From contig CAWETI010000002.1 of NCBI GenBank assembly GCA_963812015.1, positions 1,376,001 through 1,440,000 on the forward strand: a DNA stretch of 64,000 bases, given 5' to 3'. Position 1 is the stretch's first letter. Each line of letters starts with the position of its first letter. Source of the stretch: an uncultured delta proteobacterium (GTDB taxonomy: Bacteria; Desulfobacterota; Desulfobaccia; Desulfobaccales; 0-14-0-80-60-11). Positions 12,050-59,201 of this stretch are shown here, in pieces. The notes under the pieces are model-generated. The model was not told the origin of the DNA. It saw nothing but the letters and a program-made list of their open reading frames with translations, and ran no database searches. A program made the translations under genes and the position numbers.

Positions 12050-13789
12050 GTGAAGGTAGTTCTGGCCCAAACCGCCGGTTTTTGCATCGGGGTCAAACGG
12101 GCATTGGAATTGGTCCTGAAGGCCATCAATGAAAACCAGGCTAAGATTTACACCTATGGTCCGCTGATCCACAACCCCCAGGTCCTGGAATTATTGCGAG
12201 AACGGGGGATTTCGATTCTCAAGCCTGGGGAGGACGTCCCCCCGGGACTGGTAGTGATCCGGGCCCACGGCATCCCTCCCCAGGAACGGCGCCTGCTGGA
12301 GCAGGGCGGCGGGCGCATCATCGACGCCACCTGCCCCAGGGTGGCCAAGGTCCAGGCCATCATCCAGCGCTGGGCCGCCAAAGGGTGCGCCACCCTGATC
12401 GTGGGGGATGCCGATCATCCGGAGGTGCGGGGCTTGATGGGCTACACCGAGGGGCGGGGTTACGTGGTGTCCACCTCCCGGGATGTCGCGGCCTTGCCTG
12501 ACTTGGACGAACTGATCGTGGTGGCCCAAACCACCCAGAGCAAATCCCAGTTCGATGCCCGGGTCCAGGAAATTACCGCCCGGTTTCCCCAGGCCCAGAT
12601 TTTTAATACCATCTGCGATGCCACCGCCTCCCGCCAGGCCGAGGTCCAGGAACTGTCCCGGCAGGCGGAGGCCCTGGTAGTGGTGGGGGGACGCAACAGC
12701 GGCAATACCCAAAGGCTGGTGGAGGTCTCCCAGGAGACCGGCATTGCCACCTACCAGGTGGAGACCGAGCAGGAACTGGACCTGGTGGAAATGAGCCGCT
12801 ATCAAACCGTGGCCGTGACGGCCGGAGCCTCCACGCCCCACTGGCTCATCAGCAACGTGGTGAACACCTTGAAGCATGCCTGGGCCTTTCGTCCCGGCTC
12901 CTGGACCAACTATCTGTACCGCGCCTGGCGCTTCGTCCTCAAGTCCAACTTATATGTGGCCATCGGCGCCGGGTCCCTCAGCTACACCTCATCCTTGCTG
13001 CAGCAGGTAGAGCCCCAGTGGAGCTATTTTTTCGTGGCCTTCTTCTATGTCTATGCCATGCACCTCCTCAACCATTTCACCGACACGGCCTCCAAGCTCA
13101 ACGATCCGGTCCAGACCATGTTTTACGGCCGCCACCGGCACTTTCTCCTGGTCACCGGCCTGCTCTCCGCCTGCATGGCCCTGGGCCTGGGAGCCTACCT
13201 GGGGCTGTTGCCGTTTATCTTTGTCTTGGTCATGAGCTGTATCGGCCTGATGTACAGTTTCAAAATCATCCCGGAGCGTCTGGCCCAGGCCACCGGCATT
13301 CACCGGCTCAAGGAGATCCCCGGCTCCAAGACCATGTTCACCTCGGTGGCCTGGGGGGTGCTGGCGGCCCTCATCCCGGTGGTGTGCTCCGACCAGGAAA
13401 TCTCCGGGGCCACCGCCATCGCCTTTTTCTTCGTGGCCGGCATGATCTTCATCCGTTCCGGCCTCTTTGAGATCATGGCCATCGAAGGGGACCGGGTGGT
13501 GGGCAAGGAAACCCTGGCCATCGCCCTGGGCAAAGAGCGCACCTTCATCCTGCTGTTCTGCGGTTCTCTGGCCTTTGTGGCCATGTTGCTCGTGGCCGCC
13601 TGGAGGGGCGCCATCCCTTCCCTGGGCTACACCCTGAGCCTGTCCGGGCTCTATATGCTGGGCTATCTCACCCTTTATCACCGGGGCCTGATGGAATCGA
13701 GCCTGTTGCTGGAGTCCCTGGTGGAAGGCAACATGATCCTGGCCGGCATCCTGGCCTTTATCTGGGATCCATATAACGTGATTTTTTAA
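12050..13789 (+). CDS. ispH: IspH (HMBPP reductase) fused to a C-terminal UbiA-like prenyltransferase domain
   Basis: AGFC, IHNP, IRAHG, DATCP, HPEV, AQTT, NTICDAT, NSGNT, TAGASTP; then a multi-TM domain with NHFTD and EGDRVVGKETL. Confidence 0.9.
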   Translation: MKVVLAQTAGFCIGVKRALELVLKAINENQAKIYTYGPLIHNPQVLELLRERGISILKPGEDVPPGLVVIRAHGIPPQERRLLEQGGGRIIDATCPRVAKVQAIIQRWAAKGCATLIVGDADHPEVRGLMGYTEGRGYVVSTSRDVAALPDLDELIVVAQTTQSKSQFDARVQEITARFPQAQIFNTICDATASRQAEVQELSRQAEALVVVGGRNSGNTQRLVEVSQETGIATYQVETEQELDLVEMSRYQTVAVTAGASTPHWLISNVVNTLKHAWAFRPGSWTNYLYRAWRFVLKSNLYVAIGAGSLSYTSSLLQQVEPQWSYFFVAFFYVYAMHLLNHFTDTASKLNDPVQTMFYGRHRHFLLVTGLLSACMALGLGAYLGLLPFIFVLVMSCIGLMYSFKIIPERLAQATGIHRLKEIPGSKTMFTSVAWGVLAALIPVVCSDQEISGATAIAFFFVAGMIFIRSGLFEIMAIEGDRVVGKETLAIALGKERTFILLFCGSLAFVAMLLVAAWRGAIPSLGYTLSLSGLYMLGYLTLYHRGLMESSLLLESLVEGNMILAGILAFIWDPYNVIF

Positions 13790-14373: not shown

Positions 14374-15852
14374 ATGAAAAAGTTTATAGTCTTCGCGGTA
14401 GTTCTGGCCTTGCTGGTGCCTTCTTTGGCCCTGGCCACGGAATTCACCTTGGGTGGTTTCATCAAATTGGATGCCTTCTGGGATTCCGTCCAGCAAGGCA
14501 AGAACATGAACGGTACCATTGGCCGCAACAATGACCCCAACTTGGACCACGGCCGGCTGAAGTTCACGGCCCAGGGCTCCCGGTTCAACTTCACCATCAA
14601 GGGTCCGGACCTCTGGGGCGCTAAGACCACCGGCTACATCGAAATGGACTTTGATATTAACGAGCAGGGCGCCACCACTGCTGCCGGTATCCCGGCAGTA
14701 GCGAACACTGCCAGCGCCTCGAACAACTACGCGCCGCGGCTGCGGCACGCCATGTTCCGGTTCAACTGGCCTGAGACCGAACTGCTGTTCGGCCAGTACT
14801 GGTCCATGTTCTGCGAATGGTATCCTGAACTGGCGGAAGACGGCCCGTTCCAGACCACCGGCATTCCCACCGCCCGGATCCCCCAGATCCGCTTCACCCA
14901 GCAGTTCCTGGGCTGGGGGACGGCGTCTGTGTTGGTCGGCAGTGCCAATACCGCGAGCAATGGCCAGGTCTATTCGACCTTTGACACCAGCGGGCAGTCG
15001 ACTGCGACCCCCCAGGTGCAGGGGAAATTGCAGTACGCCCAGGACTTGTGGGGTAAGGCGGCGTATTACGGGAAACCCACTCCCTTCACCGCCCAGGTCG
15101 TAGCGGGTTGGCAGCGGAGTGGCTTTGCGCAAAACTTTGCCAATGCCACTTACTTTACCTTTGGTCAGAATACCTGGTCTAACTTTTTAACTGGCGCTAA
15201 TACCGCTGGGATCAATCTCAAACATACGACCCTGAATCCCTGGATGGTCATGGGAACCGCGTTTATCCCGGTCATTCCCACCCACAGCGCCAATCTCACC
15301 GGGACCGCCTCGCTGTTGGCGAACTGGTGGATCGGGGCCGGGGTTGACTCCTTTGGGATGGCAGGCGCGACCAACCCCATTAAGTTCAATGATAACAATA
15401 ACGGGATCTATTCGTATAACTACGAGTTGGAGCAGCGCTTCGGCGGCTTCGTCCAGGGTCAGTACTACTTCAACAACGAGTGGAATGTCACCGTGGCCTA
15501 CGGCATGAGCAGGGTCTTCGGCCTCAGCCAGTCGGATACGAACGCGGCCGCCGCCCGGGGCCTTGCTGCTGGAGGCATCAATGCGCCCGGTTACGTCTAT
15601 GCCTTTAACGCTGATGCGTCGAAGCTGCAGCAGCAGTTGGAAGGGATTCTGTGGTACCGGCCCATCCAGGCCATCAAATTCGGTCTGGAATACGCCTATG
15701 GCCAAACCACGTGGTTTCAAAGCACGGGACAGGCTGCTGCATTTCCTACGGGTGCGGTCCCCGCTGTTACTGCTTTCAATGCCACCCCGGTCAACACCTC
15801 GAATGTGGGCAATGCCCACCGGGTGGAGTTCGTCGGGTTCTTCTACTTCTAA
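14374..15852 (+). CDS. Outer-membrane beta-barrel porin (DcaP-like)
   Basis: Signal peptide, GGFIKLD, SRFNF, GYIEMDF, PRLRHA, GQYWS, RIPQIRF; aromatic C-terminus FFYF. Confidence 0.8.
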   Translation: MKKFIVFAVVLALLVPSLALATEFTLGGFIKLDAFWDSVQQGKNMNGTIGRNNDPNLDHGRLKFTAQGSRFNFTIKGPDLWGAKTTGYIEMDFDINEQGATTAAGIPAVANTASASNNYAPRLRHAMFRFNWPETELLFGQYWSMFCEWYPELAEDGPFQTTGIPTARIPQIRFTQQFLGWGTASVLVGSANTASNGQVYSTFDTSGQSTATPQVQGKLQYAQDLWGKAAYYGKPTPFTAQVVAGWQRSGFAQNFANATYFTFGQNTWSNFLTGANTAGINLKHTTLNPWMVMGTAFIPVIPTHSANLTGTASLLANWWIGAGVDSFGMAGATNPIKFNDNNNGIYSYNYELEQRFGGFVQGQYYFNNEWNVTVAYGMSRVFGLSQSDTNAAAARGLAAGGINAPGYVYAFNADASKLQQQLEGILWYRPIQAIKFGLEYAYGQTTWFQSTGQAAAFPTGAVPAVTAFNATPVNTSNVGNAHRVEFVGFFYF

Positions 15853-15876
15853 CCTGAAAACCGGTTGACTTCAACC

Positions 15877-15912
15877 AGCCCACAGGGTAATATCCCTGTG
15901 GGCTTTTTATTT
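15877..15912 (+). terminator. Rho-independent terminator after the porin
   Basis: AGCCCACAGGG-TAATAT-CCCTGTGGGCT followed by a T-tract. Confidence 0.9.
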
Positions 15913-15917
15913 CTTGA

Positions 15918-15950
15918 CGGTTTTCAGTTTTCAGTTTCCGGTTTTCGGTT
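15918..15950. repeat. 7-mer repeat arm (left of four-helix gene)
   Basis: CGGTTTT CAGTTTT CAGTTTC CGGTTTT CGGTT. Confidence 0.85.
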
Positions 15951-15956
15951 AAAAGC

Positions 15957-16325
15957 ATGGAGCAAAAAGGTTATAAGTCAAGATCTTACCGGTATTTAGA
16001 GGTGTGGAAGCTGTCAATCGATTTTGTGAAGAAAGTTTATCAGGTAACGCACAATTTTCCCGCTTCTGAAAATTATGGGCTAATAAACCAGATCAGGAGA
16101 GCCGCGGTTTCCATCCCTTCCAATATTGCCGAAGGCCAGGGCAGAAATTCCACCAAAGAATTTAAACAATTTCTGGCAATAAGCTTGGGTTCCCTGGCAG
16201 AATTAGAAACCCAGTTGATCATTGCCAAAGAAATAGAATACTTGACCCAGAATGGACTTGATGCTCTGCTGAGCCCCCTCGATAGAATAAGAAAAATGAT
16301 CAAGGGCTTATCAAAAGGAATATAA
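15957..16325 (+). CDS. Four-helix-bundle protein (23S rRNA-IVS protein / Avd-like)
   Basis: YRYLEVWK..FPASENYGLINQIRRAAVSIPSNIAEG..FLAISLGSLAELETQL signature; visibly AT-rich. Confidence 0.93.
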   Translation: MEQKGYKSRSYRYLEVWKLSIDFVKKVYQVTHNFPASENYGLINQIRRAAVSIPSNIAEGQGRNSTKEFKQFLAISLGSLAELETQLIIAKEIEYLTQNGLDALLSPLDRIRKMIKGLSKGI

Positions 16326-16367
16326 TAATGCTTATTTTGGCAAAGACTATAGCTTGTCTTTTTCTTT

Positions 16368-16404
16368 CCGAAAACCGAAAACCGAAAACCGAAAACTTAA
16401 AACG
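16368..16404. repeat. 7-mer repeat arm (right of four-helix gene), inverted relative to 15918-15950
   Basis: CCGAAAA x4, then CTTAAAA CG. Confidence 0.85.
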
Positions 16405-16413
16405 GAGTGCGGA

Positions 16414-17562
16414 ATGCTAAAGAGATTCGTGTTGGTGCTGCGACTGGGGCTTCTGCTGTTCGTGTCGGCCTCCCTGCTGGTGGGGGGATGCAGCACGGTG
16501 AAGAAGTGGGCGGGTTATGGGGGCGAGGGCGAAGATGAAGAAACGGCGCCACCCGAGGCCCAGCAAGAAACGGTGATGATTGACGGCAAACCCTATGTTC
16601 GCAGCAAAAATCCCTACTGGCTCAGCTACGCCAACGCCCCGGAATATCTCTATGTCGAAAAGGGCACGGAGTTCGTGACCGCCCAACAGCACCTGGTGCA
16701 ATCCCTGGCCAAGGCCATCGGCCAACAGCAGACCCAGGCCGCGGGCAAGACCATTCCCCCGGATAAACTCCAGGAAATGGTGCGGGCCGAGGTGGACCGC
16801 ATCCTGAGGGAGCAGGGGCTGGGAGGTTTTGTCTCCCAGGCCAAGGGGGGCGGCGTCTCGGCCGTTGTGGGACGGGCCGTGGCGGTCATTCCCGATCTGG
16901 ATACGCCCCGGACCTATGACGGGATGAACCGCACCCTGGCCATGTCCCTGGGAGATGCCATGGGCCGGACCAAAGATCTCAAGGTGAGCGCTCCGGATCA
17001 GGTGCAAGAGGCCCTGCGCAAGGCGGGGGCGGCAGGCAAACTGACGCTCAGCCCCAATATCAAGGCTCTGGGGGATGCCCTGGGGGTACAGGGCATTGTC
17101 CTGACCGGGGTGATGCCGCCGGAAGGCGGGACGCCGGGAGCCATGGTCCTGCAAGTCTTTGATACCTTCACCGGCCTCCAGGAAGAAGCCATCGTGGCGC
17201 CGGCGGGCGCTGAGGGGATGAAGCCCGAGACGGTCACGAAGTTCGCCCAGGCCAACGCCCTGCGGGTGGCCGGGGACCTCATCAAAATTTCGTGGTTCGG
17301 GCGGGTGGAGTTTGTCAAGGAGGGCAAAGTCTACCTGAACCTGGGCCAGAACTCGGGCCTCAAGGTGGGCGACCGCCTCAAGGTGGTGCAACCGGGCAAA
17401 GAGGTGGTCAACCCCAAGACCCAGGCGGTCCTGGGTTACACTGCGGATACCCCCCAGGGGGAGATCAAGGTGACGGAGCTCCTGGGAAACAGCGGAGCTG
17501 TGGGCCTGCCGGTGAGCGGCGGCCCCTTCCAGGCCAACGATAAGGTGAAGGCGGTTAAATAA
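16414..17562 (+). CDS. Lipoprotein with a CsgG/FlgT C-terminal-like domain
   Basis: Lipobox LVGGC; C-terminal VYLNLGQNSGLKVGDRLKV..PKTQAVLG pattern. Confidence 0.7.
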   Translation: MLKRFVLVLRLGLLLFVSASLLVGGCSTVKKWAGYGGEGEDEETAPPEAQQETVMIDGKPYVRSKNPYWLSYANAPEYLYVEKGTEFVTAQQHLVQSLAKAIGQQQTQAAGKTIPPDKLQEMVRAEVDRILREQGLGGFVSQAKGGGVSAVVGRAVAVIPDLDTPRTYDGMNRTLAMSLGDAMGRTKDLKVSAPDQVQEALRKAGAAGKLTLSPNIKALGDALGVQGIVLTGVMPPEGGTPGAMVLQVFDTFTGLQEEAIVAPAGAEGMKPETVTKFAQANALRVAGDLIKISWFGRVEFVKEGKVYLNLGQNSGLKVGDRLKVVQPGKEVVNPKTQAVLGYTADTPQGEIKVTELLGNSGAVGLPVSGGPFQANDKVKAVK

Positions 17563-20040: not shown

Positions 20041-20088
20041 GGGAGTGATGACCAATTGCGGTTATCTTTCGACAATCCATGCTTTGGG

Positions 20089-20141
20089 CTGAAAGCTGAA
20101 AGCTGACCGCTGTAAGCCACTTTAATCTGACCGCTGATAGC
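20089..20141. repeat. 7-mer repeat arm between aroC and tyrA
   Basis: CTGAAAG CTGAAAG CTGACCG CTG..CTGACCG CTGATAG C. Confidence 0.65.
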
Positions 20142-29245: not shown

Positions 29246-29250
29246 GGTCA

Positions 29251-29421
29251 AGGGGCGAAAAGGGAAAAAGGCGAAAAGGGAAAAAGGGGAGAAAAAAAGT
29301 CAGGCATCACTCGTGGCGCTCCCGTGTTTAGTGGGGAGAAGTGGAACGAGAAAAGTTAAGAGGCACCTGATTGACAGGTCCTTTCCCTTCTCGCCTTTTT
29401 CCCTCTTCTCCTTTTTTCCCC
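29251..29421. repeat. Inverted pair of 8-mer tandem repeat arms bracketing about 90 nt between cimA and comEA
   Basis: GGGGCGAA AAGGGAAA AAGGCGAA AAGGGAAA AAGGGGAG .. TTTCCCTT CTCGCCTT TTTCCCTC TTCTCCTT TTTTCCCC. Confidence 0.8.
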
Positions 29422-53956: not shown

Positions 53957-54910
53957 TTATTTAGCCGGTGGATAGCCGCTCCATTTTCTGGCCAGGGTCT
54001 CGTCCACTTCCACCCGTAACGGAGTCATTTCCACAATCGGGATGGCCTTGGGCCGCTCCCCCGCCAGGACCCGCCGGGCCAGGCCGGCCAGGTCTTCCCC
54101 CAGGCGGCGGTAATCCAGGGCCACCCACAACACAGCCCCCTGGTGCGGCTCATCGGGGGCGCCGCTCACCACCCTGACCTTCATGCGGCGGCCCCAGTCC
54201 AGGGCCAGGGGCGCATAGCGCGCGGCGCTTTCGGCCGGGGGCAGATAGATGACCCGGGCTCCCCGATTCATCAGCCGCTCCAGGCCGACTGCGTCGGTGG
54301 CGGCCGCGGCGCTGGTCTCGGTCAAGGGCTGCACCCCGAAGCGCGGCGCCTCGGTCTCGAAACGCCGGGCGAAATCCGCGGCCATCCCGTCGGTGGGGTC
54401 ATAGAGGAGACCCCAGGCGCCTTGCCCCAGCAGGCTGGCGCCGTGCTGCAGCGCCGCATCCAGGGGCGCCGGGGACGCAATGCCGGTGACGTTCTCCTGG
54501 TGAATGCCGGGGTGGGCCGGATCATAAGCGGCTTTGGTAAAATAAGGGTTGGCCACCAGGCCGAAGATCACGGGAATCTGTTTCACCACCGGGGCCACCC
54601 AGAGGAGCGCCGGGGTGCCCAGCACCACCAAGAGCCGGGGACGGGTCTCTCGCACGCGGCGCAGAGTTTCCTGCCCCTGAGGCCCGAACTCCGGGACCAA
54701 AACCACTTCCACGGGTCCTGCCCCCAGTTTGGCCTTAAATCCGGCCACCGTCTGGCGCAGCCTGGGGGAATCCGGGGAGCCGAAGACGATGATGGGACCC
54801 GGGGCGCGGCTGCAGCTGGTCAAGGTCACCAAACCCATAAGCAGCAGGGTGCGGAGAAGTTTTCGGTTTTCGGTTTTCGGTTTTCGGTTAAAGGCTTGGG
54901 GTTGTAACAT
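53957..54910 (-). CDS. ABC-type substrate-binding lipoprotein
   Basis: Lipobox LTSC, LVVLGTPA, PVIFGLV, ENVTGI, LARRVLAGERP. Confidence 0.75.
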   Translation of the reverse strand: MLQPQAFNRKPKTENRKLLRTLLLMGLVTLTSCSRAPGPIIVFGSPDSPRLRQTVAGFKAKLGAGPVEVVLVPEFGPQGQETLRRVRETRPRLLVVLGTPALLWVAPVVKQIPVIFGLVANPYFTKAAYDPAHPGIHQENVTGIASPAPLDAALQHGASLLGQGAWGLLYDPTDGMAADFARRFETEAPRFGVQPLTETSAAAATDAVGLERLMNRGARVIYLPPAESAARYAPLALDWGRRMKVRVVSGAPDEPHQGAVLWVALDYRRLGEDLAGLARRVLAGERPKAIPIVEMTPLRVEVDETLARKWSGYPPAK

Positions 54911-55015
54911 ACTCACAGGGCAAGCGTTCCCAAAAAACCTGGTTAAAACAGTTCTAACCGCAATGGCGACAGGCCGTGAATAGGTGGCTCACGTTACCTG
55001 AAAACCGGAAACCGG
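54858..55015. repeat. Inverted pair of 7-mer arms bracketing about 105 nt between lepB and the ABC lipoprotein
   Basis: GTTTTCG x4 at 54859-54889 and CTGAAAA CCGGAAA CCGG at 54998-55015. Confidence 0.75.
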
Positions 55016-59127: not shown

Positions 59128-59201
59128 GCTATCAACTATCACCAGTCAGCCAAAAACTAAAAACCAAAAAACCAAAAACCGACTGCTCACTGTTAACCGC
59201 T
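59128..59201. repeat. 7-mer-periodic repeat tract after the metallophosphoesterase stop
   Basis: CTATCAA CTATCAC CAGTCAG CCAAAAA CTAAAAA CCAAAAA ACCAAAAA CCGACTG CTCACTG. Confidence 0.65.

Follow-up and report, generated by a model that had tools for sequence, protein, structure and literature searches.

A candidate intervening-sequence-type cassette in an mRNA leader: a four-helix-bundle gene between inverted heptamer arms in an uncultured delta proteobacterium

Within a 64,000-nt stretch of the genome of an uncultured delta proteobacterium of the order Desulfobaccales (assembly GCA_963812015.1, contig CAWETI010000002.1, positions 1,376,001–1,440,000 of the forward strand; the whole stretch is referred to as the window), we analysed a compact cassette at positions 15918–16403, in which a gene for a four-helix-bundle (FHB) protein of family PF05635/TIGR02436 lies between two inverted tandem arrays of heptamers (the arms), at the junction of a porin-like and a putative lipoprotein gene. 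Our preferred reading, held with roughly even confidence, is that the element is a passenger cassette of the intervening sequence (IVS) type situated in an mRNA leader, with its arms pairing into a stem of the kind cut by RNase III. What would be new is the placement of such a cassette in an mRNA leader; the protein family and the design of rRNA IVSs are known. The family is very large and without known function, and the tandem heptamer repeats of bacteria are likewise unexplained, whilst the site studied here offers a clean natural series at a single orthologous locus: empty, intact with four arm variants, reduced to a pseudogene, or stripped to the arms.

The elements that an earlier note on this DNA had picked out from its letters, namely an AT-rich FHB gene, inverted heptamer arms and the lack of a Shine–Dalgarno (SD) sequence, were all confirmed (coordinates in Table 1). 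The 5′ arm reads CGGTTTT, CAGTTTT, CAGTTTC, CGGTTTT and CGGTT, and 6 nt (AAAAGC) separate its end from the ATG at 15957; no purine-rich SD stands ahead of that codon. Tandem Repeats Finder (TRF) places this arm at 15920–15950 (period 7, 4.4 copies, 87 % matches) and the 3′ arm, which begins 42 nt beyond the stop codon, at 16368–16396 (period 7, (CCGAAAA)x4.1, 100 % matches), with CTTAAAAC prolonging the latter to 16403. The cassette interior has a GC content of 40 %, compared with 58 % in contigs C2 and C3. The proposal that the arms are reverse complements able to pair was likewise borne out: they form a 31-nt inverted repeat (15920–15950 versus 16373–16403, 90 % complementary, 422 nt apart), and they are paired in the predicted minimum-energy RNA fold of either strand.

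The history of the cassette is best read at the orthologous junction in related genomes. Of 31 genomes, 29 yielded the lipoprotein gene, and the porin–lipoprotein junction could be read in 19. Nine hold an intact FHB gene, always in the same orientation, three a pseudogene and one an internal deletion, and six are empty; in one state or another the cassette is present in 13 of the 19 resolved genomes, a second genus included. Five relatives (G005, G006, G008, G010 and G011) carry an intact gene with arms GTTTTTR/YAAAAAC, one (G016) has arms GTTTTCT/AGAAAAC, one (G015) GTTTTTS/SAAAAAC, and the GTTTTCG/CGAAAAC arms of the window (own genome, G000) recur in G018, which belongs to another genus. 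In G001 a frameshift has disrupted the gene, which still shows 87 % identity across 84 aa and has GTTTTCG arms; the pseudogenes of G002 and G014 have decayed arms. In G007 both arms remain, together with the first ∼21 nt of the ORF (19 of 21 bases as in the window). The comparison of junctions for empty alleles that the earlier note had called for did turn them up: in G012, of the same genus, and in all five readable sister-family genomes, the terminator is followed by ∼35 nt, the SD and the ATG, with no heptamers. Arms and gene are present, decayed or missing together, in keeping with the note's view of them as one unit. The series shows that they arrive and evolve as such, that the arms change in step, and, as in the arms-only derivative, that the arms outlast the gene. 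Between lineages, the arm changes are complementary and affect all units, which points either to selection for pairing or to a conversion process between the arms.

The cassette appears to be old and mostly vertically inherited at this junction. In the lipoprotein tree the empty G012 is sister to the occupied G010 (100/99), within the GTTTTTR clade (98/99), and being nested among occupied genomes it has either shed the cassette or acquired an allele without one. In a tree of FHB proteins (124 columns) the GTTTTTR copies and G015 fall into one clade (98/93), which supports their vertical descent; elsewhere that tree is a polytomy. Replacement of the cassette at the junction, suspected from the identities of G018 (lipoprotein 57 %, FHB 72 %) and G005 (lipoprotein 84 %, FHB 65 %), was not shown, given that polytomy. 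No target-site duplication was visible when occupied and empty alleles at the junction were compared by eye. The suggestion of an autonomous, currently mobile copy was not supported, as the same site is used in 13 of 19 genomes, the GTTTTTR copies form a single clade and no such duplication is seen.

The surroundings of the cassette point to a leader. The only promoter-like site nearby precedes the cassette, its −10 hexamer lying inside the loop of the porin terminator hairpin, and both hexamers are kept with small changes across the 19 junctions, empty sites included. Because this site stands ahead of the cassette, the latter would lie, in sense orientation, within the 5′ leader of the lipoprotein mRNA. 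This orientation agrees with what was seen elsewhere: of 73 FHB genes with flanks of at least 900 nt, 58 share their strand with both neighbours and three oppose both (crude ORF-based gene calls). Such cassettes inside gene strings were thus shown, as far as predicted ORFs can tell, to be biased towards the sense orientation. Placement in an mRNA leader behind a promoter-like site also makes the label ‘IVS-like’ directly testable.

The 122-aa product is a clear member of its family, matching the profiles PF05635 (E-value 5.3e-41, 139.6 bits, cut-off 33.8), TIGR02436 (131.8 bits, cut-off 24) and NF008911 (140 bits, cut-off 137); in the Pfam search PF05635 and bAvd were the only families matched. 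The conserved motif of PF05635 is given as GxxRxxxSxxxNxxE (PMC3936711), and in the translation four of the five named residues are kept (R48-x3-S52-x3-N56-x2-E59), the leading G being Q45. By sequence homology the nearest solved structure is 2GSC (XCC0516; E-value 4.1e-24), described as a homopentamer (PMC4990558, PMC3936711), and the FHB protein is accordingly taken, by homology to 2GSC, to be a putative pentameric four-helix bundle; it is basic, with a pI of 9.6. dN/dS was 0.156 against the nearest homologue (locus L002, 80 % identity) and 0.12–0.38 inside the GTTTTTR clade; on these ratios the gene is under purifying selection and, by that measure, functional. PF05635 genes have been described lodged within cas operons (PMC3936711), and membership of a defence system was considered for the FHB protein and rejected, as no PADLOC model matched. 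A pattern scan with one genome per species returned at least 603 stretches of the family. Among plasmid records 36 of 72,556, mostly cyanobacterial, had tblastn matches to the FHB protein, and none of 50,697 phage records did so at E ≤ 1e-5. One plasmid locus, Nostoc sp. PCC 7120 plasmid gamma 15088–15438 (L238), carries an annotated FHB gene with C-rich, CTCTGCC-like heptamers 3′ of its stop codon and no matching 5′ arm; an ISL3 transposase adjoins, and an identical protein is encoded on plasmid alpha. In another genome, two clusters of near-identical FHB copies, all with the same in-frame TAG, were noted (L153 and L154, G021:C1:3064338-3066991 and 3083748-3087141). They contain tandem partial copies of ∼215 nt with GAGGACT-type arms, and beside them a 36-nt sequence of CRISPR-like look is present twice, ∼40 nt apart.

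Arms of this kind are common around FHB genes of other bacteria. We surveyed 79 loci from many phyla, in which 85 genes could be aligned across >90 residues and 76 of these had complete, N-free 200-nt flanks; tandem arrays of period 6–10 were sought within 200 nt, with 399 shifted pseudo-genes from the same loci as the control. At least one array was found at 58 of the 76 homologues, compared with 36/399 controls, and arrays on both flanks at 29 (1/399 controls). Reverse-complementary arms occurred in 18/76 versus 0/399, and direct-matching arrays in 4/76 versus 0/399; the layout thus exceeds what chance would give. The units vary by lineage, and include GGATAGT, TCGTATG, GGTGACA, GAGTGAC, GTGGTTA, GGGAATC, GGGCGAC, 8-mers and one 9-mer. 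We also turned to 30 relatives belonging to the same genus, family or order: PF05635 was matched in 28 of them, with 1–20 matches each, and many of the FHB genes are pseudogenes. Among 77 distinct intact genes, 42 are flanked at up to 220 nt by inverted arms that match. Medians in these relatives were 18 nt from arm to start codon, 18.5 nt from stop codon to arm, and 4.3 and 4.6 units per arm. The association of arms with four-helix genes that the earlier note had proposed to seek thus held across other genomes; the own genome has a single gene to 48 arrays.

Among these relatives the repeat unit was shown to follow the FHB subclade. Genes at least 62 % identical to the window protein have GTTTTCG, GTTTTCT, GTTTTTR or GTTTTCC; those at 56–58 % have GAGTTTC; those at ∼50 % TTAGCAG, CAGGGGT/TTAGGGG or CAGTGGT; those at 44–46 % CAGTAGT, GTCAGCA or GGTTTTA; and those at ∼40 % GAGCAGT or GAGCCGN, whilst a clade of 127-aa proteins has the 8-mer GGSGAAAA. 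Array families occur in the same taxa as their cognate subclades: (GGNGAAAA)3 is present in all 18 relatives of family f1 and in none of 12 f2 genomes, and (GAGTTTC)3 in 1/18 and 11/12, respectively.

Arrays and genes might have no functional link, the former being generic simple repeats born of slippage, like the short tandemly repeated repetitive (STRR) sequences of cyanobacteria, which are intergenic tandem heptamer repeats, and the small acquired genes merely lying between them. We give this little credence, in view of the excess of matching inverted arms over the controls, the correspondence of unit and subclade, the empty junction alleles without arms, and the joint change of both arms between lineages. 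It would, on the other hand, account for arrays that enclose unrelated cargo. A 548-aa methylase (N6_N4_Mtase) fused to Mrr_cat/NA-iREase1 lies between inverted GCAAAGAC-like 8-mer arrays (L236, G000:C2:1572777-1574552), other array pairs (L234, L235 and L237) enclose ORFs with no Pfam match, of 166, 228 and 163 aa, and a mixed array pair encloses an ORF of 141 aa. Many arrays are moreover solitary, and heptanucleotide repeats are frequent in bacterial genomes according to work cited in PMC4679880.

The own genome has one PF05635 gene and 48 arrays in which three or more GTTTTCG-like units follow one another; (GTTTTCG)3 with at most one mismatch matches 34 times, compared with none for the reversed pattern. 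Inverted array pairs within 2 kb number 31, of which 20 have a period of 7–9, two of these being assembly duplicates. The pairs of period 7–9 belong to at least six unit families, with interiors of 1–1719 nt, and ∼10 pairs are of the GTTTTCG unit, the only one with a cognate FHB gene in this genome; the remaining families correspond to FHB subclades whose genes are intact in relatives. Remnants of FHB genes, sought with a panel of 77 proteins at E ≤ 0.05 elsewhere in the genome and in gene-less pairs, were not recovered: the search gave the one gene and two weak matches, both outside the listed array pairs. Two gene-less pairs lie in the window (Table 1). That at 54859–55015 has arrays at the orthologous site of many same-genus genomes, with variants such as CAGAAAA in G005; that at 29250–29420 has the 8-mer unit of the 127-aa subclade, which is intact in seven relatives. 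At both sites the orthologous arrays stand 6–27 nt upstream of a start codon, with lineage-specific unit variants, and gene-less arrays may serve the host. In G006 (73 % complete) (GTTTTCG)3 matches 86 times, yet the arms at its junction are of the GTTTTTR type. The persistence of arrays without the gene weighs against an obligate dependence of protein and repeat on each other. Some pairs occur with identical arrays and interiors on two contigs each (C1:26045 = C3:2183589 reversed; C4:4345 = C5:7435 reversed), which suggests duplicated assembly pieces; contamination of the assembly is given as 5.72 %.

Dispersal of this sort could mean that the cassette is a DNA unit, mobile or mobilizable, whose terminal repeats are the arms, the FHB protein spreading or maintaining arrays of its own unit in the manner of repetitive extragenic palindromic (REP) sequences and their associated tyrosine transposases (RAYTs), an explanation that we consider unlikely. 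One gene among 48 arrays and ∼10 inverted pairs of its unit, the possession of an own unit by each FHB subclade, and the sharing of taxa between array families and cognate subclades ((GGNGAAAA)3 in f1, (GAGTTTC)3 mainly in f2) would all fit, as would the presence/absence polymorphism at the porin–lipoprotein junction. Matches of the 8-mer are somewhat more numerous where the 127-aa gene is intact (seven versus 11 genomes, Mann–Whitney p = 0.036; the genomes are kin and some incomplete). Polarity would fit as well: over the arm pairs of loci L001–L184, the 5′ arm has more G than C and the 3′ arm more C than G in 55/62 pairs and 37/41 consensus units, the opposite being seen in one. Since an inverted pair looks the same from either strand, this polarity constrains the element and not the orientation of the gene, and a process of DNA-end extension may have produced it; alternatively, a C-rich 5′ arm, which would attract Rho, may be avoided in transcripts. 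Set against a DNA element are the lack of any transposase, recombinase or nuclease fold in the FHB protein and of a PADLOC match, the absence of a visible target-site duplication, and the apparently vertical inheritance at the junction. Each gene-less pair has an interior of its own, in contrast to copied miniature inverted-repeat transposable elements (MITEs) or REP doublets (REPINs), and abundant arrays occur where no intact cognate gene was found (the 8-mer in the own genome, GTTTTCG in G006). Classification as a transposon or MITE was rejected on the same two counts, target-site duplication and unique interiors, despite the inverted arms.

The position of arrays relative to genes raises a further alternative, which we hold to be decidedly improbable: that the FHB protein, possibly as a pentameric ring, reads heptamer arrays in leaders, the flanking arrays serving autoregulation and the others being its targets. 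Read as (CGAAAAC)n, 26 of the 48 arrays end at most 45 nt from a start codon (ORFs of at least 80 aa), 15 of them within 14 nt, compared with 10/48 in the opposite reading and 730/2000 random positions, by a criterion that is crude in a genome of 58 % GC. Arrays are also kept at orthologous leaders, the arms have four to five units, and the protein is basic. Similar proposals have been made for TAACTGA repeats (PMC4679880) and for the arrays of Geobacter metallireducens, in the latter case invoking unidentified global regulators (PMC2700814). Against a regulon stand the five or more unit families of the own genome that lack a cognate FHB gene and the many FHB pseudogenes of relatives, and the binding of arrays by the protein is our inference.

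We therefore return to the IVS-type cassette in an mRNA leader, for which the following course of events is envisaged. Once transcribed, the arms would pair into a stem of ∼31 bp, and host RNase III, encoded at G000:C2:505846-506493 (240 bits, cut-off 166), would cut it as in the Coxiella IVS. The cut would separate the FHB message from that of the host, so that the lipoprotein mRNA would keep a brief leader rich in A and C. The FHB protein, which is basic and, by homology, pentameric, may bind the four to five units of its own arm type, for autoregulation, RNA processing or protection; this link is proposed, on indirect grounds, because the median arm has 4.3 or 4.6 units and the 2GSC homologue is pentameric. 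The cassette would have entered the junction in an ancestor common to both genera of the family and then have been passed on mostly vertically, with frequent decay of the gene, and many gene-less arrays and pairs of the own genome would be survivors of such decay.

Several observations weigh against this course of events. In sense RNA the arms have three mismatches, two A.C and one C.U, and the antisense strand folds better (−145.8 kcal/mol, z −4.0, versus −134.7 kcal/mol, z −1.55), because the two A.C mismatches become G.U pairs there. Over 62 cassettes, mismatches on the sense strand were of the G.U type in 51 cases and of the A.C type in 33 (p = 0.063), a trend towards RNA-level selection and not proof of it. 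RNA data for this organism came from metagenome runs kept as contigs (RNA libraries X10 and X16, DNA libraries X2 and X3), and neither RNA ends nor cleavage were observed in such contigs. RNA-library contigs that may derive from other organisms cover parts of the FHB ORF, including 15920–16035; arm-to-arm joints in metagenome contigs (e.g. 15950 to 16368) have sides of 21–30 nt and could come from other arrays, and depth spikes on the arms fit other arrays or organisms. As to survivors of decay, the sequences enclosed by gene-less pairs show no relationship to one another or to FHB genes, an ancestral FHB gene occurs in none of 23 relatives at the pair 54859–55015 and by none of 23 at 29250–29420, and arrays occur without a cognate gene, (GGNGAAAA)3 having 32 matches in the own genome, in which the 127-aa gene was not found. 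Origin of gene-less arrays as scars was shown for G007 only.

A broader and more speculative proposal, on balance improbable in our estimation, is that PF05635 proteins and heptamer arrays constitute one widespread system, in which a pentamer reads four to five copies of its subfamily's own word of 7–9 nt, and words of fixed polarity are put in place, or homogenized, in leaders and operon spacers. The Avd-like protein might then partner a polymerase or reverse transcriptase in end-extension or conversion, or selection might act at the RNA level. If this were true, dispersed heptamers, STRR sequences, the ‘global regulator sites’ of Geobacter and rRNA IVSs would be facets of one partnership comparable with that of REPINs and RAYTs.

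Table 1. Features of the cassette, its host site and gene-less arrays in the 64,000-nt window
Feature	Position	Strand	Basis or remark
Upstream host gene, 492-aa outer-membrane-porin-like ORF ending ...VGFFYF	14374..15852	+	ORF list; homologues flank the junction in relatives
Sigma-70-like promoter TTGACT-17-TAATAT, 9/12 matches	15865..15893	+	Sole promoter-like site in 15700–16500
Intrinsic-terminator-like hairpin of porin gene, 11 pairs, T-run	15877..15904	+	Kept in relatives
5′ arm, ∼4.5 tandem heptamers CGGTTTT/CAGTTTT/CAGTTTC, G>C	15918..15950	+	Sequence, inverted-repeat search, TRF
FHB gene, PF05635/TIGR02436, 122 aa, pI 9.6	15957..16325	+	Profile matches
3′ arm, (CCGAAAA)x4 + CTTAAAA, C>G, reverse complement of 5′ arm	16368..16403	+	Sequence, TRF
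Downstream host gene, putative 382-aa lipoprotein, SD GGAG 16405–16408, ATG 16414	16405..17562	+	Sequence, ORF list
Solo array (GCTGAAA)x4.3	20088..20117		Spacer between genes
Gene-less inverted 8-mer pair GGSGAAAA ... TTTTCSCC, ∼90 nt between	29250..29420	.	Upstream of minus-strand ORF 28697–29245
Gene-less GTTTTCG pair: (GTTTTCG)x4.4, unique 109-nt interior, GAAAACCGGAAACCGG	54859..55015	.	Upstream of minus-strand ORF 53957–54838
Solo array (CCAAAAA)x4.3	59150..59180	.	TRF; spacer between genes

With respect to the neighbouring genes, no Pfam family was found for the upstream host ORF, which we presume to be a porin, following the label given in the earlier note and its C-terminal Phe, which we take to be typical of such proteins. 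The downstream ORF has a lipobox-like LVGGC and, in Pfam, a weak match to FlgT_C that falls below the cut-off. Further upstream, an ORF of 579 aa at 12050–13789 has a long hydrophobic C-terminal half and may be a fusion; its N-terminal half is presumably IspH/LytB-like.

Among known systems, the Avd and bAvd proteins of diversity-generating retroelements share a related four-helix-bundle fold and a basic character with the FHB protein, and PF05635 is described as resembling Avd (PMC10053308). Identity with Avd was rejected: bAvd scores 35.6 against a cut-off of 40 and DivGenRetAVD 24 against 80, no reverse transcriptase is adjacent, and the two RVT_1 genes of the genome lie elsewhere (C3:740486 and C2:479358). 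RAYT genes are single, vertically inherited genes between inverted short repeats, which occur throughout the genome both singly and as inverted doublets (REPINs), each subfamily having its own repeat. The present cassette is like them in that its one gene descends vertically and stands between inverted copies of a dispersed repeat, and unlike them in that the FHB protein lacks the HUH/tyrosine-transposase fold, the repeats are tandem heptamers and not palindromic REPs, and the doublet interiors are unique. The TAACTGA repeats of Beggiatoaceae likewise consist of heptamers in tandem, which lie largely between genes and in many cases stop shortly before a start codon (PMC4679880). They are described as direct and as enclosing no gene, as are STRR sequences, and we found no mention of 23S rRNA, IVSs or four-helix proteins in PMC4679880.

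The paired arrays of G. metallireducens (classes 1–3) are similar in form: three to five tandem 7–9-mers face a like array on the other strand, the distance between the two varies, and several families coexist in the genome (PMC2700814), an arrangement also displayed by the 20 inverted pairs of period 7–9 in the own genome. They are intergenic and were put forward as ‘global regulator binding sites’, with binding of the IHF/HU type proposed (Aklujkar 2009, PMC2700814); we found no four-helix-bundle gene named with them in that report or in 12 of its 19 supplementary files. A full-text literature search found no published heptamer-armed PF05635 cassette outside rRNA, nor any paper that links PF05635 genes, the Geobacter arrays and the TAACTGA repeats.

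The closest counterpart is the ORF-bearing 23S IVS of Coxiella burnetii (S23p) and Leptospira, where the loop closed by a long terminal stem contains an S23p/PF05635 ORF, in sense to the host transcript. The own 23S rRNA gene (G000:C3:356676-359689, 3014 nt) was examined for an IVS and rejected as a site of one, as it has neither array nor FHB gene. The defining insertion of an IVS into a 23S gene, at helix 25 or 45, is not what is found here; the bordering complementary stem is, and the cassette differs in lying in an mRNA leader between porin and lipoprotein genes. The terminal stem of the Coxiella IVS is 28 bp long and is cut mid-stem by RNase III, which excises the element; this cut removes the SD (PMC4990558). 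A variable number of heptameric repeats precedes its S23p ORF (PMC4990558), the only printed mention of such repeats beside such a gene that we found, and the window cassette shares with it both the heptamers before the ORF and the poor SD. Unlike the Coxiella ORF, reported to be decaying (PMC4990558), the FHB gene is under purifying selection. The present locus suggests that the IVSs of rRNA that bear an ORF are one particular instance of a much wider class of cassettes carried in transcripts.

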